This document shows, in pieces, positions 6,942 to 36,778 of a stretch of 38,961 nt of DNA. The notes under the pieces are model-generated. The model saw only the letters and a program-made list of their open reading frames with translations. It did not search any database and was not told the origin of the DNA. Every line of letters begins with the position of its first letter. Positions within the stretch are counted from its first letter, which is position 1. The stretch comes from Candidatus Bathyarchaeia archaeon (GTDB taxonomy: Archaea; Thermoproteota; Bathyarchaeia; 40CM-2-53-6), in NCBI GenBank assembly GCA_035637575.1, contig DASPWY010000189.1, positions 1-38,961 of the forward strand, read 5' to 3'. Made by a program: the position numbers and the translations under genes.

Positions 6942-8476
6942 GGGAGAGGCTCCGTTATGAATCCATCAGATCCGTACCCAGTAACCAACTCGGTTCGAAG
7001 CTCTTCTTGGCTCTCCGCGCCTGTGGAGAGTCCGGGTTGGCTGTCGCCCATTTTCCAAGAGGCTCGCGATCTTAGCTTCCACCAGCTAGACAGTTCGCCG
7101 AGCGTCATGATTTCGCACTCCGGATCCTTGGAGAATCCCTCGAGAAGTCGCCTATACTCGCCTTGATGTTCTGGCATACCAAACTCATAGTCCGGATGGA
7201 CTAGCAAGACGCATGGTCCGGCTAAACTGCGAATCCAGCTTGAGAGTCGCAAGAGGAGGTCAACCGCGGCTGAAGGCCGCTGCCCGGCTATTCTAATCAG
7301 TTGATGATCCTGTGGGAGCGATACCGGGATCTCTAGTATTCCGTTGATTTCAAACGGGAATATCGTTCCAACGCCGTGTGCCCTCAAGGATGTCGGGGAC
7401 AGTATTTCCCAAGAAGGGCAGGACGAGTCGTAGTCGAAACCCGCCCTAGTCGCGGACTCTGCTAGTTCTCGGCTGTGTTGCAGCAGAGGTGCTCTGAAAC
7501 CTCTAACCTCTCGACCGGTAAGTTGTTCTAGCCTGTTCTTGCACTCTCCTAGTCGACGGATCTTCTCGTCAATATTCAGAAATGTAAGCCGCCCGTCGTG
7601 TTTGGTGTCGTGACCTCCAATCTCTCCCGAGTTCTTCAATTTGTCTAAGGAGTGAACCGATAGAGGGTAACGGTCGCTCGGAAGGTTCCAGGACGAGCGA
7701 ATCCGGAGGTTACGCTCAACCTCTAGCAATTGAGCTGTTCCTCTCTCCAAACCAGAGGCTCCTTCAACGTCGTGTGACACGACCAGAGCGTATGATTTTC
7801 CTCGCCTCCAGAAACCGATTCGAGGAATCGGACCAGAAGATATGACTAGGCTCGCCAAGAACAAAGTTCGAAGGCATTCGACGGGGGCCAGTTTCTCGTA
7901 CACGCTCTCTCCAAGATCTTCCTTCGTTCGGAAGGATCGTTCCCTTACGAACCGAGGAATCGCTGAGTAGGAGAATGGCAGTCTAGTGGCCATCCGGAAT
8001 TTCCAGCTAGGGGTCTCTTCAAAGCCGTCGTAGACTCTCTTGGAGAACTCGCCGACAAGATTCAACGAAAGGAGATAGACTCTCTCGCCTCTTACTTTGG
8101 TGAGAACCTGTGTGTTCCCTGACTTGAGAAGTGGTTCTGCATCGGGTCCTGAGAATTCACAGACATCGGTTCTGACGGATACGTTGGTGCCGGGGCCCGC
8201 CGGAAGAGAGATCAGGGAATTCCTTACAGATATTCCCAGTCCGTAGCTTCTAGCAATCCTCCCTGCTTCCTTCATTCCATTCGGAGATATTATCAGCGGG
8301 GAATCTTTCGGGTCAGAAGCCGTAGCATTGCCCGTAGCGAAAATCGCGGCTCCCTTGGTGCTGCTGTTGAGTTCGTAAGGTATCTTCCAGAAATCTGCGT
8401 ATTCTCGCAGAATGTTGGATTCAGTGTCTGAGTCCGATTTCAAGACAACAGGTCGAGTCCGAGAGATCTGAATCAT
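6938..8476 (-). CDS. Polysaccharide deacetylase (CE4/NodB-like) with a long N-terminal domain
   Basis: The track ORF extends to 8674, but its first 66 codons overlap the upstream GT2 gene. ATG at 8476 (MIQISRTRP) lies 2 nt after that gene's stop. CE4-like motifs are present: LVVSHDVEG, GFRAPLLQ and LLVHPDYEF. Confidence 0.7.
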   Translation of the reverse strand: MIQISRTRPVVLKSDSDTESNILREYADFWKIPYELNSSTKGAAIFATGNATASDPKDSPLIISPNGMKEAGRIARSYGLGISVRNSLISLPAGPGTNVSVRTDVCEFSGPDAEPLLKSGNTQVLTKVRGERVYLLSLNLVGEFSKRVYDGFEETPSWKFRMATRLPFSYSAIPRFVRERSFRTKEDLGESVYEKLAPVECLRTLFLASLVISSGPIPRIGFWRRGKSYALVVSHDVEGASGLERGTAQLLEVERNLRIRSSWNLPSDRYPLSVHSLDKLKNSGEIGGHDTKHDGRLTFLNIDEKIRRLGECKNRLEQLTGREVRGFRAPLLQHSRELAESATRAGFDYDSSCPSWEILSPTSLRAHGVGTIFPFEINGILEIPVSLPQDHQLIRIAGQRPSAAVDLLLRLSSWIRSLAGPCVLLVHPDYEFGMPEHQGEYRRLLEGFSKDPECEIMTLGELSSWWKLRSRASWKMGDSQPGLSTGAESQEELRTELVTGYGSDGFITEPLP

Positions 8477-8478
8477 GG

Positions 8479-9207
8479 CTAGTGCCTTGCCCCGAGTCTC
8501 AGAAGGACTATTGGCGTCACTATTTGACGCCAGTCTTTCAAAGGAGATATGTGCGAATATCCCCTCTTCTGAGTTTGAGAATACGTCTTCGACACAGGAC
8601 GTTCGGTGAACCTGTAGCCGAGAGTCAGGACCTTGTAGTGAAGGTAGTATTCCAGCTCGTATCCGTTGAGCCATTCCTGCGAGACGTTGATTTCTGGGTC
8701 TTGCAGCAATGCGGCCCTATACGCTCTGAATCCGTTGGTGACCTCGGTGCAGTGGACTCCCGTAAGTAGGGTCCAGGCGAAAGGGAACAAGCGCGTGAAT
8801 ATTCTTCGCAAGAATGGTGTTCGCTCGCCTCTTCCGCCTGGGAGGAATCTCGATCCCTGGACGTAGTCGAAGCCGTCTCGGATGATGGGGCTGGTTAGCC
8901 TCGGTATTTCCTGGGGGTCGTCCTTTCCATTTCCTGCCATGACTACGATAATATCGGCTCTCTCGGACAGTGCAGAGGTGTACCCTTGCTTGATCGCGTA
9001 TCCAATGCCCTGCCTGACAGGGTTTTCGATGATTCGAATTGGAACCGTGGTCTGTTTCCTACTTGACTCTATCTCGGCCAATATGGCGGCATTAGGATTG
9101 TCGACAATTATATAGATCTGGTCGACAGAGTCGGGCGCAAACCTCTCGATCACGCGCCCAATCTTTCCGACTTCTCGATAGACCGGGATGATCGCAACGC
9201 GTCTCAT
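8479..9207 (-). CDS. Family 2 glycosyltransferase (soluble, Dpm1/GtrB-like size)
   Basis: 242 aa. Motifs: VAIIPVYRE, IYIIVDN, VVMAGNGKDDPQEI (DxD-like region) and YVQGSRF. ATGA overlap with the upstream acetyltransferase gene. Confidence 0.75.
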   Translation of the reverse strand: MRRVAIIPVYREVGKIGRVIERFAPDSVDQIYIIVDNPNAAILAEIESSRKQTTVPIRIIENPVRQGIGYAIKQGYTSALSERADIIVVMAGNGKDDPQEIPRLTSPIIRDGFDYVQGSRFLPGGRGERTPFLRRIFTRLFPFAWTLLTGVHCTEVTNGFRAYRAALLQDPEINVSQEWLNGYELEYYLHYKVLTLGYRFTERPVSKTYSQTQKRGYSHISPLKDWRQIVTPIVLLRLGARH

Positions 9208-9707
9208 CGACGAATTCTCTTACTGGGAAGTTTATGGCCGTTTATCTGCAAGGGGGGAGGTCTGTAGCCTACCACTTTCGCGGGGATTCCGATTGCGATA
9301 GCGTTGTCTGGAATGTTCTTTGTAACGACTGATCCTGATCCTATCAGCGCATTCTCTCCGATCCGCACTCCGGGATTGATTGTGCTTCCGGCCCCGATAG
9401 ACGCGAACTGTTTGACCCTCGTGTTGAGCCTCGTCCACTGTCCCTGTGCTCGCGGATGTTTGTCGTTGGTGAACGTGACGTTTGGGGCAATAAACACGTT
9501 GTCTTCTATGACTACACCTGTTGGGATGAAGACGAAAGGCCGAATCTTGCAATTGTCGCCTACCTTGACGCCTTCCTCGATGTACACGTAAGAGTCTATC
9601 TTTGTGTTCTTGCCTATCTCGCAGCCGTAGAGGTTTACTTGGTCGTAGATTCGCGCGTTGCGTCCTATCTTTGCATTGTTGATGATGGAGTATTTTGTTG
9701 GCTTCAT
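9204..9707 (-). CDS. Left-handed beta-helix sugar N-acetyltransferase (WbpD/WlbB/QdtC-like)
   Basis: 167 aa. Hexapeptide repeats run throughout (IGKNTKIDSYVYIEEGVKVGDNCKI...). NVTFTNDKHPR and the IGAGSTINPGVRIGENALIGSGSVV segment are typical of amino-sugar N-acyltransferases. ATGA overlaps at both ends. Confidence 0.75.
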   Translation of the reverse strand: MKPTKYSIINNAKIGRNARIYDQVNLYGCEIGKNTKIDSYVYIEEGVKVGDNCKIRPFVFIPTGVVIEDNVFIAPNVTFTNDKHPRAQGQWTRLNTRVKQFASIGAGSTINPGVRIGENALIGSGSVVTKNIPDNAIAIGIPAKVVGYRPPPLQINGHKLPSKRIRR

Positions 9708-10729
9708 TTCCTGACCGGGATTTCAGGCATAAATGGTAATGAGACCTGTACTGTGCGGTCTTGGAACATAGACTCTCTTGAAGCTTCCAACAGGGAGACG
9801 ACGCGGGCTCCAAGTATCCCGTCGGAATGATTCGCGTAGGGAGTAGAGTCTTGATTGTTCCGGATGCAGTCTGCGAAGTGAATGATCTCGCTAGCGAGCG
9901 TATTGCTTTGCACCACTGGGATCTCGCGTTTTCCCTGCGGTCCCTCGATGGAAAGTTTCTGCGTAACGCAGTCTAAGTGCGCCGTCCCTTCACTGCCTAT
10001 GACGGTGACTTCCCGCCTCTTCTCCCTGTCGAGCCAGCTGACCTCGATGCGTGCCATTACCCCTCCCTTGTGCTCTGCCGTGATAAACGCTACTTCCTCA
10101 TTCTGCTTCGTCCTGTATCCCCGCCCCTTGGCCGAGATCCTATCAGGCCATGAATCAAGAACATAGTTGCAGATGTCGAAAGGATGCGGAGCGAGGTCGG
10201 TTACGACTTCGCGTTGCAACTGTGGGCTCATGAACGCGGTCCATCTCAATCCCAGATAGTAAGGGTCGCCTATCCCGCCCTCTTCCAGCAAACGGCGGAG
10301 TTCGCGAACGCCGTTATTGAACCGGTGAATGTGTCCAACGCATAGAACGCGGTTGTTCTCCTTTGCGATCCTTACGAGTTCGTACGATTCCTCCGTCTTG
10401 AGTGTTAGCGGTTTTTCCACCAGCACATTCTTTCCTTGTCTAAGGAATCTTGAGGCTACTTCGAAGTGGGTACCGTTCGGTGTGCAGACATGGACCCCGG
10501 AAAGCGAAGGGTCAGACGTGAGTTCTTGATATCCCATCCTATAGCCAATGCCAGCACCGAATTCCTCCTGGCACTGAGCCAGCGACTGGGGAGAGCTGTC
10601 GACAATTGAATGAAGCTGGATCTGCCCGGTGGCTCGTCCTATCTCGAGTGTCTCCCGGATCACCTTTCTTCCCCAGTAGCCGGAGCCTATGACCGCTATT
10701 CGGAGAGGATTCATTCTTGAAAAAATCAC
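9704..10729 (-). CDS. Gfo/Idh/MocA-family NAD(P)-dependent sugar oxidoreductase (WbpB/WlbA-like)
   Basis: Rossmann motif RIAVIGSGYWG, the LVEKPL (EKP) motif and a GHIHRFN region. The track start is GTG 10729; ATG 10714 (MNPLRIAVIG) is an equally good start. Confidence 0.8.
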   Translation of the reverse strand: MIFSRMNPLRIAVIGSGYWGRKVIRETLEIGRATGQIQLHSIVDSSPQSLAQCQEEFGAGIGYRMGYQELTSDPSLSGVHVCTPNGTHFEVASRFLRQGKNVLVEKPLTLKTEESYELVRIAKENNRVLCVGHIHRFNNGVRELRRLLEEGGIGDPYYLGLRWTAFMSPQLQREVVTDLAPHPFDICNYVLDSWPDRISAKGRGYRTKQNEEVAFITAEHKGGVMARIEVSWLDREKRREVTVIGSEGTAHLDCVTQKLSIEGPQGKREIPVVQSNTLASEIIHFADCIRNNQDSTPYANHSDGILGARVVSLLEASRESMFQDRTVQVSLPFMPEIPVRK

Positions 10730-25599: not shown

Positions 25600-26769
25600 A
25601 TGACCACGACCTTTCTCTTCGATCTAGCAATCGCGGTCGCAGCAGCCCTCCTCTTCAGTCTACTCTTCTACAAACTTCGACTTCCAATGATCGTAGGACA
25701 GCTAGTGGCGGGAATGGTCGTAGGACCCTTCGGTCTCGGCCTAATCCGAGACACAACAGCCATTGACTTTCTCAGTACTCTAGGAATAATTCTGCTGCTA
25801 TTCGTAATAGGTCTCGAGCTAGATCCTCGCCATCTCAAGAGCGTCGGATCAAAAGCCATAGTACTCACCACTGTAGAGTTTCTCGTAGCCTTCACACTTG
25901 GCGTTCTCTCAGGACTCGCTGCAGGATGGAACCTTGGCACTTCTCTGTTCCTAGGTTCGGTACTAGGCTTGAGCAGCACGGCAATCGTGGCGAAGATTGT
26001 CGCCGACCGGACTCATGAACACGGCGAAAGCCTCGCCGCTACAATAATGATGGTTATGGTCGTCGAGGATCTAATAGCTGTCTTTCTACTCTTCCTCACA
26101 CCAGAGCTTGCCAGCGGAAACCAAGTTCAAGCCGCGGCATTTTTGATTGTAACTGGCAAGGCCGGCTTCCTCTTCCTTACCACCTTTGGTTTCAGCAGGT
26201 ACCTCGGCCCGAGAATCATCAACCGAGTAAGCCAGTACGAGATCGAAGTTGGAGAAATCTCATTTCTCCTAGCTCTATCATTCGGGTTCCTCTTCGGAGT
26301 CTTATCCGATTACCTTGGCTTCTCACCGGGCATAGGCGCCCTGCTGACAGGATTCTTTCTGCCGGTCAAGCATTCCCGTTACGTGAGGGAGAAGATTCTG
26401 CCTCTCAAAGAAGCCTTCATCGTGTTCTTCTTCCTCTCCATGGGGGCACTCATTGATGTTAGGGCTGCACTGTCCGTAGGGCTTCCACTGGCCATCATAC
26501 TAGGAGCAGCAATCTTCGGAAAACTAGTCGGCGGCTCACTGGGCGCACGTCTGGCAAAAACCGGGGTCCCATTGCTCATAGGCAGCATACTAGTTCCCCG
26601 CGGAGAATTCTCACTAGTGCTCGCCAAAGCCGGAGTTGATTCCGGTATCGTGAGCTCGCAACTCTACCCGGTTGCAGGATTGGCGGTCCTGGCTACGACT
26701 CTCGCATCGCCAATAATTGAAAGGTCGCTGCACTCTTCTAGAACTGAGAAATTGGTGACGGAGTCTTAA
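25600..26769 (+). CDS. Cation:proton antiporter (CPA2 / Kef-NapA type, PF00999)
   Basis: 389 aa. FYKLRLPMIVGQLVAGMVVGPFGLGLI is the family's N-terminal signature, followed by LLLFVIGLELD. There are about 12 TM helices. Confidence 0.85.
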   Translation: MTTTFLFDLAIAVAAALLFSLLFYKLRLPMIVGQLVAGMVVGPFGLGLIRDTTAIDFLSTLGIILLLFVIGLELDPRHLKSVGSKAIVLTTVEFLVAFTLGVLSGLAAGWNLGTSLFLGSVLGLSSTAIVAKIVADRTHEHGESLAATIMMVMVVEDLIAVFLLFLTPELASGNQVQAAAFLIVTGKAGFLFLTTFGFSRYLGPRIINRVSQYEIEVGEISFLLALSFGFLFGVLSDYLGFSPGIGALLTGFFLPVKHSRYVREKILPLKEAFIVFFFLSMGALIDVRAALSVGLPLAIILGAAIFGKLVGGSLGARLAKTGVPLLIGSILVPRGEFSLVLAKAGVDSGIVSSQLYPVAGLAVLATTLASPIIERSLHSSRTEKLVTES

Positions 26770-27011
26770 CAGCGGACCGACTTTGGATGGTGGTTAGGAT
26801 TTCTCAGGGAGAGATGCTTCTTGACAACAACTGCATACGGTGCAGGTTGGTGACATAGGGCTGATTGAACCATCATCGTGCAACAGGAACACTTCATGTC
26901 TAAGCATCGGCCTCGGAGGCCATGACGGCAGTCTTGGCAGGAACAGCTGCTTCCAGAACCCGTGAGAATAATGAATCCCGTCGGCCCGGTCTCAGAACGC
27001 TTCTTCTTCAA
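26766..27011 (-). CDS. Small cysteine-rich protein (Cys7His motif, copy A)
   Basis: 81-aa ORF with a TTG start. The core is CSCQDCRHGLRGRCLDMKCSCCTMMV, which aligns residue-for-residue in its Cys/His/Leu positions with the unlisted ORF at 32810-32983. Confidence 0.45.
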   Translation of the reverse strand: MKKKRSETGPTGFIILTGSGSSCSCQDCRHGLRGRCLDMKCSCCTMMVQSALCHQPAPYAVVVKKHLSLRNPNHHPKSVRC

Positions 27012-27070
27012 GCCAAACTGGATAATTAACTGGATAAGCTGTTTAACTGGTTGCCGTTACCGAGAATCAC

Positions 27071-31970: not shown

Positions 31971-32549
31971 TTAGATCTGCGACTGTTTTGCCTTGGGAGT
32001 CTTAGGGGCTATGGCCTGTTCCTTGTCGACACGACGAATTTTGCATACGAGTTGATCGTCGGTCTCTTCTAGCTCCACTTCCATTCCAAGTCGAACACTC
32101 AAGGCTTTGAGGGACGCGCCATAGTAGGCGGACGCGCTCTGTCCCATGCTATGCCTCAGAATTATCGTGCGGTTGCGGTCATCGCCCGACTCGGAGTAGG
32201 CGAACGCGTTGGAGTATTCCGCGCCTATCACCCGGAAGGTCTTCAGAACAGACTCTAGATCGAACTTGCGGAAATAGTAGAGAATGAACTCGACGACTGC
32301 GCTGTTACCGTTCTGGAGCCCCATTTCTCGAGCCTCTTCAACAGTTAGGTGCGACCAAAGCAGTTTCATTAGTCGGGGATCGCTGATGACCAGCTTGAAG
32401 TTCTCAACGAATCTTCCCCATTCGAGGTAGTGTCGCAGGGCCTTGTTGATGAGCAAGTTGGCCTCTAGAGTATGACCATCTACAAGAGCGTCTATTTTCT
32501 CGCTGACGTCTGGCTCAATGGCAAATGTTCGACGCGTCAGTCGTGCCAT
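31971..32549 (-). CDS. Ribbon-helix-helix (CopG/Arc/MetJ-like) regulator with a C-terminal putative ligand-binding domain
   Basis: 192 aa. The N-terminus RRTFAIEPDVSEKIDALV....ANLLINKALRHYLEW fits a beta-strand plus two helices of RHH. The C-terminal part of about 130 aa is unassigned (possibly V4R-like). Confidence 0.45.
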   Translation of the reverse strand: MARLTRRTFAIEPDVSEKIDALVDGHTLEANLLINKALRHYLEWGRFVENFKLVISDPRLMKLLWSHLTVEEAREMGLQNGNSAVVEFILYYFRKFDLESVLKTFRVIGAEYSNAFAYSESGDDRNRTIILRHSMGQSASAYYGASLKALSVRLGMEVELEETDDQLVCKIRRVDKEQAIAPKTPKAKQSQI

Positions 32550-32609: not shown

Positions 32610-32809
32610 ACTATCATGTGGACCCTAGCATAGTCCAGATCACAAGAGGCTACCCCAGGCAAAGACTTTCAGAGATAGTATGACTCTTCTATGACTTGGC
32701 CGGAATCCCCTTGTCTGATACTGTTGCAATCTCCGGACCTTGAGGAGCGTGGCGAGAATGGCTTCTCATCAGAGGTCGATTGATAATCTCAGAAAGCGTT
32801 AGTTGACGG

Positions 32810-32983
32810 TCACTGGCTTACCTGTGTTGTGCAGCACCAGCAACCTTTGTTGAGACAGTCACTCTGAAGATGATGGTCGCAGTGTCCGCAGACGCAGAAG
32901 AACTTGCCCCTCTTGACCTTGCCCATCGTCGAATTGTGAACCTCGATGGTATTCGATACCAATGCCTGCTTGGTCAGCGACAT
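32810..32983 (-). CDS. Small cysteine-rich protein (Cys7His motif, copy B); not in the ORF track (57 aa)
   Basis: My own translation gives MSLTKQALVSNTIEVHNSTMGKVKRGKFFCVCGHCDHHLQSDCLNKGCWCCTTQVSQ*. It shares the CxCxxCxHxLxxxCLxxxCxCCTxxV pattern with ORF 26766-27011. An internal ATG at 32926 would give a 38-aa form. Confidence 0.5.
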   Translation of the reverse strand: MSLTKQALVSNTIEVHNSTMGKVKRGKFFCVCGHCDHHLQSDCLNKGCWCCTTQVSQ

Positions 32984-33177
32984 CTCTCAACGGTGGTGGA
33001 AAGATGCGATTGAGGATAACTCGGTGTTGTAACTCTGAGTGATCGATACCGGGTTTCCTAATCCAGAGGTTTCATGAACAGTTACTCCGTTTCTCACCAT
33101 TGGCTAGAACCCGAGAGTCAATACACGGGTTGCAGATCAAAAGAATACGCGCGCCCCCAATTGCGGGCAGGATTAAG

Positions 33178-33750
33178 ATGGCGTCACAAACCAAAGGAAG
33201 AGAGTCGTGGACCGAAGAAGAGTCTACGAGGACAACCATTCGGCAGTCGAGCCCGCTAAAACTGTCAAGGGTTTTCAGATTCGTCGACCAGCAGACTGGG
33301 GCTCCACAGATCTCAGACTTTCCAGACTCCAACCCTACAGGAGACACTCCCCTAGAAATCAGGATGAAACATTTCACGGAGATCGAGAACTTCACCTTTC
33401 TAGCCTACACGCTCTCCCACGAACTTGGAGGGACTACTCCGAGGCCCATTCGGACCGTAGCTGATCTACAGGTTCCCGACGAGGAGTTTCAGAACTTCAT
33501 CAACGAAGCGAAGACCGCGAACCTGACTGACGAGGAACTTGCGGACACTGTGCTGGATGTGGGAATTAACTGGGAGCACTTCGTTGCCTCAACCGATAAT
33601 CTCCTAATCCCTGAACATCCGCTGAAGATAACGGATGTTCTGATGCAGGAGAAGATCGACTCCCTCGACATCATCACAGAAGCATTCGTCCGAGAGGTCA
33701 ACCTCCGCAGCATCGAGAAGAAGACCGGGACGAAAAGCAGAGAAAGCTAA
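33178..33750 (+). CDS. Hypothetical acidic protein
   Basis: The track ORF starts at 33100 (TTG); I prefer ATG 33178 (MASQTKGRESW). No recognised motif. Confidence 0.4.
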   Translation: MASQTKGRESWTEEESTRTTIRQSSPLKLSRVFRFVDQQTGAPQISDFPDSNPTGDTPLEIRMKHFTEIENFTFLAYTLSHELGGTTPRPIRTVADLQVPDEEFQNFINEAKTANLTDEELADTVLDVGINWEHFVASTDNLLIPEHPLKITDVLMQEKIDSLDIITEAFVREVNLRSIEKKTGTKSRES

Positions 33751-33813: not shown

Positions 33814-35367
33814 TCATGCGAGATTGTCGTATGCCATTAACGTCATGAACTCGGGGAAGCTATCGCTGGTCGTCAGTCTGTCAAGTAACTCTCCCGCGCC
33901 TCTGTAGTTGCTCGTATGATAGGCTCTCAATCCGATCTCTTCCGTTATTCGCGCCTTTTCTTCTCTCAGCATTGAGCGGAACAACCGGCGCGTAATGGTG
34001 GGTCCTTCGACTAGTTTGGCAGAGTGATGAATCCACTGCCAGATCTGTGCCCTACATATCTCCACCGTCGCCGTGTCTTCCATCAGGTTGTTGATCGCAA
34101 CGCACCCTAAGCCTCCCAACCACGACTCTAGATATCTCAGGCTCACGGCAATATTCGCTCTGACAGCTTGCTCGCTTATCTTCGGCTCCGGGACCTTGAG
34201 GAGATCCTCGCGGCCCACCTTTACTATCTCGCCACCGTCGTTGGATTCCAGAGGATGGTCGTTGAATACTTTCATGACGACAGGCACTAGTGCTGGGTGA
34301 GCGACCCACGCGCCCTGGTATCCCTCTGAAGCTTCGCGCTTCTTGTCCGCGAGCACCTTGTCGATTGCCTCCTGAGAACGCGGGTCACCTCTGATAGGGA
34401 CCTGTGCAGCCATTCCTCCGATTGCATAGGCGCCTCGTCTGTGGCACGTTTGAGCTAACAGTATCGAGCAGGATTTGAGGAAAGGCGTGGTCATGGGCAG
34501 TAGTGGTCTTTCGGGGACGACGAATCTTGGGTTCTCACCGAGGAATTTGATGAGGCTAAAGATGTAGTCCCAGCGGCCGAAGTTGAGGGCGGTTATCCTT
34601 TCGCGTAATGAGTAGAGGATTTCGTCCATCTGAAAAGCTGCAAGAATAGTCTCGATAAGGACGCTGCATTTGATGCTGGCGTGGGCAAGCTTGAGAGCCT
34701 TCTCCGTATAGTCGAAGATGTCGTTCCAGAGACGCGCCTCCTGATAGCTCTCTAGCTTGGGGATGTAGATGTAGGGTCCAGTCCCGCGACCTGCTAGCTT
34801 CTTTGCGTTGTGGTAGACGAAGAGGCCGTAGTCGAAGAGGAAGGCCGGAGTCGGATTGGACCCGAAGTGAGTATGCTTCTCGGTGAGGTGTAGGCCTCGA
34901 GGTCGGACGAAGAGTGTCGCAAGCTTTTCTCCGAGCCTATACTCTCGTCCATCCGGACCCGTATATGCGATGGTCCGGTTGACTGCATCTCGAAGATTAG
35001 CCTGACCCTGCAGGGTTCCCCTCCAGGTTGGCGAGTGGGAGTCTTCGAAGTCGGCCATATAGACGTCAGCGCCGGAATTGAGAGCATTGATCACCATCTT
35101 CCGGTCGACTGGACCAGTGATTTCGACGCGCCGCTGGCGAAGGTCGGCTGGGATAGGTCCGATTTTCCAGTCGGAGTTTCGAATTTCGCGCGTCTCGTCG
35201 AGGAAATCGGGAAGTGTTACGGTGCGGAGGCTCTCATGGACGAGGATTCTCTTCTGAAGTAGGAAGTCTAGGCGTGGAGAAAATTCTCGGACCAGATCGC
35301 GGACGAAGGCGAGCGCATCGGGGGTCAGTATCTCTTCGAAGCCCTCGAGGGTCGGGGATGGGATCAT
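33814..35367 (-). CDS. aceB: Malate synthase A
   Basis: 517 aa, collinear with E. coli AceB. Shared segments include RRVEITGPVDRKMVINALNSGADVYMADFEDSHSPTW, GRWDYIFS, HRRGAYAIGGMAAQ and LMEDTATVEICRAQIWQWIHH. Confidence 0.93.
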   Translation of the reverse strand: MIPSPTLEGFEEILTPDALAFVRDLVREFSPRLDFLLQKRILVHESLRTVTLPDFLDETREIRNSDWKIGPIPADLRQRRVEITGPVDRKMVINALNSGADVYMADFEDSHSPTWRGTLQGQANLRDAVNRTIAYTGPDGREYRLGEKLATLFVRPRGLHLTEKHTHFGSNPTPAFLFDYGLFVYHNAKKLAGRGTGPYIYIPKLESYQEARLWNDIFDYTEKALKLAHASIKCSVLIETILAAFQMDEILYSLRERITALNFGRWDYIFSLIKFLGENPRFVVPERPLLPMTTPFLKSCSILLAQTCHRRGAYAIGGMAAQVPIRGDPRSQEAIDKVLADKKREASEGYQGAWVAHPALVPVVMKVFNDHPLESNDGGEIVKVGREDLLKVPEPKISEQAVRANIAVSLRYLESWLGGLGCVAINNLMEDTATVEICRAQIWQWIHHSAKLVEGPTITRRLFRSMLREEKARITEEIGLRAYHTSNYRGAGELLDRLTTSDSFPEFMTLMAYDNLA

Positions 35368-35422: not shown

Positions 35423-36778
35423 TCAATTCTGTTGACTCTTGTCGTGATCGTTTTCCGAGCGGTGGATCGGAGGCGTGACCATGGCTGTTTGATCTTTGAA
35501 CTGAGCTGTCTCTGTAGACTCATCCATCGCCGTGGTTGAGGATGTTCCGCTCGATATTACGGTCGAAACCTCGTCGAAGTATTCAGTTCCGACGAAAGCC
35601 TGGTGTTTGACCGCTGCGTAGCCTTCCCTTTCGGCCTCGAACTCTTTTCCTTGGACACGAACGTAGGCCGACATTCCTTCAACAGCGTACTGTCTGGCGA
35701 GTTCGAACATGGAGACTGAGAGGCTGTGGAAGCCTGCGAGGGTGACAAATTGGAACTTGTAACCCATCGAGGCTAGGTCCCTCTGGAAGCTCCGGATTAC
35801 ATGAGGATCGAGATGTTTCTCCCAGTTGAATGAGGGCGAACAATTGTACGCGAGTAGCTTACCCGGATAGACTCTATGGATGCCTTCAGCAAATCTTCGA
35901 GCCTCGTCAAGGTCTGGCGTCGCAGTCTCACACCATACGAGGTCGGCGTATGGCGCATAGCTGATGCCACGCGCGATTGCCGCTTGTAGTCCGGGTTTGA
36001 GTCTATAGTAACCCTCCGCGGTTCGTTCCCCTGTCGTATACGGAAGATCCCGCGGGTCAGCGTCGCTGGAGAGGAGCTTCGCTCCGACTGCATCCGTTCG
36101 CGCTACTAGATAGGTAGGGACGCCCATCACGTCCGCCGCAAGCCGGGCAGCGACTAGGGTCCTGATGAACTGGTGAGTTGGGACTAGGACTTTGCCGCCT
36201 AAGTGGCCGCACTTTTTCTCTGATGCAAGCTGATCTTCGAAGTGTACTCCCGACGCTCCCGCTTCGATCATTGCTTTCATCAGCTCGAACGCGTTGAGGG
36301 GGCCTCCAAACCCGGCCTCGGCGTCGGCGATTATCGGGGCGAACCAGTCGATCTTTCCTTTCCCGCTCAAGTATTGTATCTGATCGGCTCTCTGGAAAGC
36401 TTGATTGATTCTCTTTACGAGATTCGGAACGCTGTTGGAAGGGTAGAGGCTCTGGTCCGGGTATGTCTGGCCTGAAAGGTTAGCGTCCGCGGCTACCTGC
36501 CAGCCGCTCATGTAGATGGCTTTTAGGCCGGCCTGAACCATTTGAACTGCCTGGGCTCCTGTAAGTGCGCCTAGCGTTGGAATGTAGGCCTCATCCGCCA
36601 GGAGGCGCTCGAATTTCTCTGCACCTATTCTAGCGAGCGTATACTCGGGACGGATTGTACCACGAAGTCTGACAACATCCTTTGCCGAGTAGGGTCGACG
36701 AATCCCATTCCAACGATCGGAGAGCCAGCTCTGCTCTAAGCGTCCAGTCTCGTTGCTGGCATCAGCTACGCTGGTCAC
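35423..36778 (-). CDS. aceA: Isocitrate lyase
   Basis: 451 aa with a GTG start. The ICL signature [13 protein letters not shown] is present, along with [18 protein letters not shown] and CSPSFNW. The C-terminus extends about 24 aa beyond the usual ...TETAQF end. Confidence 0.93.

Follow-up and report, generated by a model that had tools for sequence, protein, structure and literature searches.

A question raised by the 38,961-nucleotide stretch of Bathyarchaeia DNA analysed here, termed the window, is whether a 57-amino-acid reading frame that is absent from the list of its open reading frames encodes a real protein, and what such a protein would do. A sequence-only reading of the window placed the frame on the minus strand and described it as a cysteine-rich paralog of a second small open reading frame. 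The frame, now termed CYSA, is present at 32810..32983 (minus strand, stop codon included), begins with ATG, and its translation is exactly the peptide that was given. The proposed pairing with the open reading frame at 26766..27011 (minus strand), termed CYSB, is reproduced by BLASTP: residues 30-55 of CYSA align without gaps to residues 23-48 of CYSB with 12 of 26 positions identical (pairwise E 5e-6), and the identities are the seven cysteines, a histidine, two leucines, a threonine and a valine. When the whole assembly (1.56 Mb in 195 contigs, 80.5% complete) is searched in translation, CYSA leads to CYSB at E 0.0085. The cysteine pattern itself, CxCxxCx7Cx4CxCC, has two matches in the six-frame translation of the assembly, CYSA and CYSB, where 2.5e-5 matches are expected from the cysteine frequency in 3.13 million residues. 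The observation is confirmed, and the likeness between the two sequences is not a product of chance.

Cysteine accounts for 7 of the 57 residues of CYSA (12%), and the protein is mildly basic. A basic stretch was said to precede both cores. This is correct for CYSA, where GKVKRGK adjoins the core immediately on its N-terminal side, but in CYSB the KKKR run is about 15 residues upstream of the core.

Conservation in related genomes, on which the status of the frame was said to turn, is evident. Four other genomes of the genus carry CYSA orthologues with open frames and 75-85% identity. Among the five genome orthologues, variable columns are distributed 14/8/40 over the three codon positions, and the flanking sequences diverge, while the open reading frame and one upstream block are kept. 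A scan of metagenomes produced 178 relatives of CYSA, the best 80 of which were kept (71-100% identity); these loci were chosen by a pattern containing the last four cysteines and then by tblastn ranking. Stop codons and frameshifts through the motif were looked for, and an intact frame with seven cysteines is found in 80/80 of the kept loci, although this intactness is partly built in because the selection pattern includes the last four cysteines. A gap-free core of 53 codons accommodates 77 of the 80 loci, with the three outside that pattern left out, and these 77 give 44 distinct nucleotide sequences. In these, variable columns are distributed 22/19/51 by codon position. The comparison of synonymous and non-synonymous sites gives a median dN/dS of 0.089 and a maximum of 0.55, with no value above 1 (Nei-Gojobori, 850 pairs with dS > 0.1). 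TGC and TGT alternate at each of the seven cysteine codons and the ATG is invariant, as are several residues that are not candidate ligands: V15, K22, K24, G26, K27, V31, D36, Q40, L44, K46, G47 and W49. CYSA is under strong purifying selection.

Expression of CYSA is weakly supported by a single 186-nt contig, present in one of four soil metatranscriptome runs, which spans 32753-32938 with two differences; metatranscriptome contigs carry no strand information, and RNA libraries can include DNA. The neighbouring region 33178-33750 is covered by contigs in all four runs, and the gap in cover at 32963-33166 is uninformative. It is as good as certain that CYSA is a genuine gene.

The gene is situated in a variable stretch of the chromosome, with the isocitrate lyase-malate synthase genes and a 190-amino-acid gene on one side and a 103-amino-acid open reading frame on the other. 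Malate synthase (33814-35367, minus strand; PF01274, E 3.9e-84) and isocitrate lyase (35423-36778, minus strand; PF00463, E 1.4e-107) are adjacent; they represent a glyoxylate-shunt pair in this soil Bathyarchaeia genome and are found beside CYSA in many of the metagenome loci. The 190-amino-acid protein (33178-33750, plus strand) belongs to no known family and is conserved beside malate synthase. An open reading frame of 192 amino acids (31971-32549, minus strand) has no Pfam or NCBIfam match; its N-terminus appears ribbon-helix-helix-like by eye, and its position relative to CYSA varies between strains. The gene order of the window, that is, the gene without known family, CYSA and the 192-amino-acid frame, is present in 23 of the 80 metagenome loci. 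A membrane-protein gene immediately precedes CYSA in 33 loci, and three are truncated or ambiguous in gene order. The remaining context, found in 21 loci that form a clade of 71-78% identity, is unrelated and lies beside the histidyl-tRNA synthetase region. The chromosomal surroundings of CYSA are stable in 59 of the 80 loci.

Some loci display further features. The gap between CYSA and the 192-amino-acid frame is 260 nt in the window and about 2 kb in loci L075, L083-L091, L093, L094, L101 and L102, where it is filled, at the same position, by a gene for a 494-amino-acid KaiC/GvpD-like ATPase (in L084 at 8299-9783, minus strand; PF06745, E 1.5e-9; GvpD_bR2, E 5e-7). A diverged member of the family in locus L034 (G020:C146, 8038-8226, minus strand) is located between the aIF2-gamma gene and a PIN_9 gene, after which comes the gene of ribosomal protein S15; they share a strand, and the member looks like part of a translation-related gene cluster. 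In locus L032 (G015:C15, 3046-10898), six open reading frames that flank a family member are without a Pfam match, one of which (171 amino acids) looks helix-turn-helix-like by eye; this region may be a mobile element.

Relatives of CYSA and CYSB are few. A library of 1.84 billion representative sequences contains 11 at E <= 0.001. Members from this library include P0005, P0006, P0007 and P0010, the last a tandem pair with two copies of the module; P0004 lacks two of the seven cysteines and P0011 is frameshifted. P0009 and P0012, repeat proteins in which no more than 15-23 positions of the profile are matched, were judged spurious. Diverged members within the genus are found at L019 (genome G004), L008 (G015), L021 (G020), L010 (G006) and L009 (G021). 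Degraded copies are also present: in G013 the CYSA orthologue has a one-base insertion that shifts the frame, together with a CC to SC change, and the copy in G007 is broken by a stop codon and a frame change and has lost two cysteines. Some of the degraded copies may be assembly errors.

By profile search, the family is present in 10 of 401 genomes of the class, all from one genus (9 of the 21 other genomes of that genus, plus the window's own); the 379 genomes that represent 130 other genera of the class do not have it. A scan of the genomes of 185,579 species yielded seven loci, all on contigs of metagenome-assembled genomes of the same genus, and the viral contigs searched contain no relative of the CYSA protein or of the recombinase P0015 described below. 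Weak matches in other genera (E 0.01-0.4) were treated as noise, and none outside the genus appeared in the later profile search. Scans for cysteine patterns in individual loci added no members: a CxCxxC scan of L007, L009, L011-L015 and L018 found a single unrelated frame, in L012, and a looser pattern had no match in L045 and L049-L051. Translations of L007, L009, L045 and L051 were also inspected, and L051 proved unrelated.

The seven cysteines are invariant in an alignment of 11 sequences. In the larger alignment of 51 members, six remain invariant and C30 is a cysteine in 50 of 51. The proposed Cys7His ligand set is not upheld in its histidine, as 46 of the 51 members have H at position 37, four have D and one has R; the position is also R in the L066 orthologue of CYSB. 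A second histidine, at position 16, was absent from the first description and is better conserved (49 of 51), and every one of the 51 members has a histidine at position 16 or 37. All 51 also have a positive net charge, +1 to +8, with pI values of 7.6-9.6.

Database models offer no name for the motif. Pfam and NCBIfam scans of CYSA, CYSB and their relatives return sub-threshold noise only, and in neither collection does a zinc-ribbon or zinc-finger model match. Two such noise matches, bHLH_IRO3 (E 0.15) and Transpos_assoc (E 0.044, on P0005), were set aside, as were the best ESM Atlas scores of 0.81-0.82, which are within the range reached by shuffled proteins. A sequence-profile search of the PDB gives two chance rows (E 3.7 and 5.9). 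Among the titles and abstracts listed by full-text literature searches, none concerns this family. The sequence-only reading had allowed that a known family might cover the motif trivially; the Pfam scan finds none that does. The seven-cysteine module, of about 55 residues, defines a new family of small proteins, narrow in distribution.

The paralog CYSB begins with TTG and encodes 81 amino acids, consisting of the seven-cysteine core and a C-terminal extension. At its 3' end, 4 nt are shared with the convergent gene of a Na+/H+ exchanger. The orthologue of this exchanger in locus L037 (G011:C138, 12379-13532, minus strand) is split into open reading frames of 261 and 117 amino acids, the result of a frameshift or of an error in assembly. 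P0007 is identical to CYSB at 31 of 64 positions (48%, E 1e-22) and shares the C-terminal extension, with the motif PAPxAVVV; an orthologue 90% identical to CYSB is present in locus L066. This relative with the same extension and the L066 orthologue argue that CYSB is an old, maintained gene. The claim that both small frames are real genes, built as one family on a conserved seven-cysteine scaffold, is thus borne out, for CYSA by purifying selection and for CYSB by its 48%-identical relative.

The constraint on CYSB differs from that on CYSA, since the eight nucleotide differences between the window's CYSB and the L066 orthologue are all non-synonymous, with no synonymous change. The adjoining 150-nt flanks differ at 2/150 and 0/150 positions, and the divergence of CYSB is 3.3%, where that of the region is about 2.7%. 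Eight of eight non-synonymous changes have a probability of roughly 0.1 under neutrality by the author's own estimate. The pattern, from the one orthologue pair compared, may reflect relaxed or positive selection. A diversity-generating mechanism was considered and rejected, as the differences are not adenine-specific and the gene has diverged little more than its region has (3.3% against 2.7%). Among the differences are the loss of an eighth cysteine in the tail and an apparent swap of histidines, with L16/H37 in the window's CYSB and H16/R37 in L066.

What the module might do is suggested by its presence in a larger protein. A search for longer relatives of the library protein P0008 found P0015, a tyrosine recombinase of 509 amino acids. 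Residues 187-394 of P0015 match Phage_integrase (PF00589; 32.4 bits, cut-off 27.1), and its residues 1-57 align with CYSA end to end and without gaps, with 20 of 57 identical (E 5e-10). P0008, which is 84% identical to P0015, has the same front end, and its residues ~90-165 display a weak likeness to core-binding domains of the integrase SAM-like type (E 0.024 and 0.12, both sub-threshold). In P0015 the module is N-terminal to a core-binding-like part and to the catalytic (PF00589) part, which is where complex tyrosine recombinases have their arm-binding domain. P0015 belongs to a cluster of 45 sequences drawn from ENA, NCBI and JGI; the module stands at the start of P0015 and of 6 of the 14 other members listed, and the other eight begin further in. 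CYSA itself is free-standing, and this is the form in which the module is mostly seen.

A passage in a published study describes N-terminal arm-binding domains of recombinases as recognizing accessory DNA sites, and puts forward the proposal that simple recombinases, by gaining such a domain, gave rise to those of mobile elements (PMC8138268). The recombinase body of the P0015 type fits the view expressed in that passage, as it has relatives without the module: in another family of the class, 9 of 14 genomes encode proteins of ~350 amino acids that are ~39% identical over residues ~80-430. Genome G020 holds a body that is 35% identical. The best long frames of 10 other recombinase loci from related genomes do not contain the module, and the fusion of module and recombinase is known from one recombinase lineage only. 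Neither the window nor its genome contains a recombinase of the fused type or a remnant of the recombinase body. The seven-cysteine module constitutes a new type of N-terminal module in recombinases.

With a probability of about one half, CYSA is read as a metal-stabilized module that binds DNA. The two parts of this reading are not equally secure. Binding of metal, probably of two zinc ions, is likely, and DNA binding is a tentative proposal at somewhat under even odds. The module would consist of a hydrophobic strand ending in His16, a lysine/glycine-rich hairpin and a cysteine knot, C30-x-C32-x2-C35-x7-C43-L-x-K-x-C48-x-C50-C51-T. The seven cysteines, with His16 and/or His37, would hold two metal ions, probably zinc, and these ions would fold a chain that is too small for a hydrophobic core. 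In the recombinase the module would act as an arm-binding-like DNA-recognition domain, and the free CYSA and CYSB proteins would be small DNA-binding regulators or accessory factors, whose targets may be the GAGTTA/CAGTTA repeats in the promoters of the two genes themselves. The DNA-binding part is proposed because of the N-terminal position in the recombinase, the existence of a tandem form, the basic charge and the conserved non-ligand residues.

The putative target boxes are found upstream of both genes. A block conserved upstream of CYSA, GAGTTACAACACCGAGTTA (33017..33035, minus strand), contains two GAGTTA hexamers whose starts are 13 nt apart. In 50 distinct upstream sequences, this stretch, read as AGAGTTACAACAtCGAGTTAAG (33017-33035), is the best conserved, and the remaining upstream sequence diverges. 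Its downstream hexamer (GAGTTATC/GAGTTAAG; GAGTTA(A/T)) is ~35 nt before the ATG of CYSA. A second element, CCGTTGAGAG (32984..32995, minus strand), abuts the ATG and is conserved in the same 50 sequences, where it reads CCGTTGAGA(A/G) immediately 5' of the start codon; it is possibly a short leader or ribosome-binding region. Upstream of CYSB, CAGTTAAACAGCTTATCCAGTTAA (27026..27049, minus strand) consists of a repeated CAGTTAA and an AGCTTAT box and has a putative role only. GAGTTA-N5-8-GAGTTA occurs twice in the genome, and the sole genomic match of the pattern [CG]AGTT[AT]A-N3-12-[CG]AGTT[AT]A is the CAGTTAA...CAGTTAA upstream of CYSB.

These boxes can be compared with the general promoter signals of the genome. 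Over the whole genome (G000), TTAA, TTAT and TATA words peak at -45 to -25 from ATG starts, GCTTAA and TAATAT are enriched ~8-fold in the 80 nt before the ATG of long open reading frames, and GAGG peaks at -15 to -10. These peaks suggest the positions of the promoter box and of the Shine-Dalgarno sequence in this lineage. As the TTAA/TTAT/TATA words peak at -45 to -25, the downstream GAGTTA box is at the position expected of a TATA-like element, and the block at 33017-33035 is a putative promoter. The GAGTTA/CAGTTA repeats could be an operator. Since the downstream box stands where TATA-like elements are generally found in this genome, the GAGTTA pair may also be simply the promoter.

Structure prediction gives a partial view of the module. 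The best of five AF2 models of CYSA, built on 51 sequences, has a pLDDT of 78.1 and a pTM of 0.58, and the other four have a pLDDT of 43-50; an earlier run with 11 sequences (pLDDT 50.7) was not used. The one confident model predicts strands at residues 12-16, 22-24 and 27-29, a helix at 40-46 and a further strand at 52-56. A Foldseek search of this model against the PDB has no match at E <= 0.001, and VIA-align finds none of 48,161 chains at Z >= 2. As both searches are empty, a resemblance to arm-binding domains of the lambda-Int/Tn916 type is unsupported.

The N-terminal module of the recombinase could serve oligomerization instead of DNA binding. More generally, the module may be one for protein-protein interaction or oligomerization, with the free proteins binding a partner or acting as decoys of the recombinase; its role would then be like that of the N-terminal zinc domain of retroviral integrases. 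This is an unlikely explanation of the family, although an N-terminal place in a recombinase and the occurrence of free-standing and tandem forms are in keeping with it, and the fast change of CYSB at non-cysteine positions (8:0) is what interaction surfaces can display. Neighbourhoods of family members are heterogeneous, however, and no recurring partner gene is found beside them. The host genome is also without a recombinase of the fused type for a decoy to act on, yet CYSA is strongly constrained, and the uniformly positive charge fits nucleic-acid binding at least equally well.

A metallothionein-like role is distinctly unlikely. Here the protein would be a buffer or chaperone that sequesters zinc, copper or cadmium, and it would have no nucleic-acid role. 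The small size, the seven invariant cysteines with a histidine, and the CxC, CxxC and CC motifs all suit such a role, and the sequence-only reading was reminded of SmtA/BmtA metallothioneins. That link is unsupported, as no family member matches any Pfam or NCBIfam model; PF02069 in particular is unmatched by CYSA and CYSB at E <= 1 and by 11 members at E <= 10. Cysteines are only 7 of 57 residues, and the many invariant non-ligand residues and the regular secondary structure of the AF2 model are also at odds with it. Metal-transport or metal-resistance genes do not recur beside family members. Since the module is an N-terminal domain of a recombinase, binding to DNA or protein fits better than storage of metal, which the fusion makes implausible.

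An iron-sulfur or redox protein, that is, a small sensor or electron carrier with four of the cysteines holding a cluster, is an improbable alternative. It is compatible with the seven invariant cysteines and the histidine, and Rieske iron-sulfur subunits occupy the top, though insignificant, Foldseek rows of the AF2 model (E 2.1, probability 0.06). These rows are far from significance, with a TM score of 0.16 and an rmsd of 11 Å, and no iron-sulfur family model matches. Redox-enzyme genes are likewise not recurrent neighbours of the family, and the fusion to a recombinase is left unexplained.

It is very improbable that the small genes are leftover N-terminal fragments of a recombinase with no host function, such as those produced by integration of the SSV type that splits the int gene. 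The module does correspond to the first ~57 residues of the recombinase, several copies are degraded, and the family is patchy, being present in 9 of the genus's 21 other genomes. Against this stand the dN/dS of 0.089 in the 44 sequences, the conservation of the start, the stop region and the promoter block, and the stable neighbourhood in 59 of 80 loci. These selection data contradict an origin as functionless fragments, and so do the lack of a tRNA gene in the window and the lack of recombinase remnants in the window or genome. Scarcely credible is a precursor of a modified cysteine-rich peptide of the SCIFF/ranthipeptide type, for although a short frame with a cysteine-rich C-terminal half behind a leader-like N-terminal half recalls one, there is no NCBIfam match, no radical-SAM or other maturase is encoded among the flanking open reading frames scanned, and the "leader", which can be aligned to the recombinase domain, is conserved like the core.

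The preferred reading, a metal-stabilized module that binds DNA, can be extended in a more speculative direction, which is considered doubtful but conceivable. The module may represent a new metal-dependent DNA-recognition fold that originated in, or was taken up by, one genus of soil Bathyarchaeia and a mobile element infecting it, with the host copies controlling the element. The recombinase of the element would use the module as an arm-binding domain, and the free host copies would be repressors, directionality factors or decoys that act on the same or evolving boxes. CYSA would then be the fixed regulator, and the fast-changing CYSB a copy engaged in an arms race.

CYSA is located in an apparently empty stretch, yet few sequences in its vicinity are constrained so strongly. 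Its family has no Pfam, NCBIfam or PDB entry and no structural neighbour, and is so far confined to one genus of uncultured soil Bathyarchaeia. Through this family, genes of the host are connected with the N-terminal part of a site-specific recombinase. Should metal binding be all that the module does, the known small cysteine-rich proteins would be extended only modestly.

Small proteins are routinely overlooked in archaeal annotation. Haloarchaeal CPxCG micro-proteins have fewer than 70 amino acids and two CPxCG pairs (four cysteines), and their fold depends on cysteine-bound zinc. The CYSA family resembles these in being archaeal and of fewer than 70 amino acids, but has seven cysteines in the pattern CxCxxCx7Cx4CxCC and no zinc-ribbon match in Pfam. 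The SmtA/BmtA metallothioneins (PF02069), in which a Zn4 cluster is bound by Cys9His2, are similarly small and rich in cysteine and histidine, with an opening CxCxxC. The seven-cysteine family differs in having only seven invariant cysteines and one or two histidines, a lower cysteine density (12%), conserved non-ligand residues, a predicted regular structure and a fusion to a recombinase.

Multi-zinc cysteine clusters that bind DNA are found in eukaryotes, in the fungal Zn2Cys6 and the CXC/tesmin Zn3Cys9 domains. The module shares with these the close CxC/CxxC spacing, a basic surface, and several cysteines that may together hold two to three metals; its overall spacing differs and there is no Pfam match. 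The N-terminal HHCC zinc domain of retroviral integrases is helical, and the enzyme that carries it is of the DDE type and comes from eukaryotic viruses. Like the seven-cysteine module, a candidate for metal binding, it is a small domain with which an enzyme of DNA integration begins, but no similarity between the two was found.

The arm-binding domains of lambda Int and Tn916 Int are the remaining comparison. These N-domains have a fold consisting of a three-stranded sheet and a helix, and seven-cysteine metal knots are not known as a feature of arm-binding domains. The module differs from them in being mostly free-standing and in having no sequence or fold match to solved chains. It is like them in its N-terminal position in P0015 and its length of ~55-60 residues. 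In the best AF2 model, the one of five that is confident, three short strands followed by a helix recall their fold, a likeness that no PDB match supports. The P0015 body has relatives without the module, as would be the case for an acquired domain in the sense of the passage cited above. If the module does bind DNA, it would add a novel type to the arm-binding domains known from recombinases and would be a small DNA reader that depends on metal; it would also offer a handle on the mobile elements of Bathyarchaeia.
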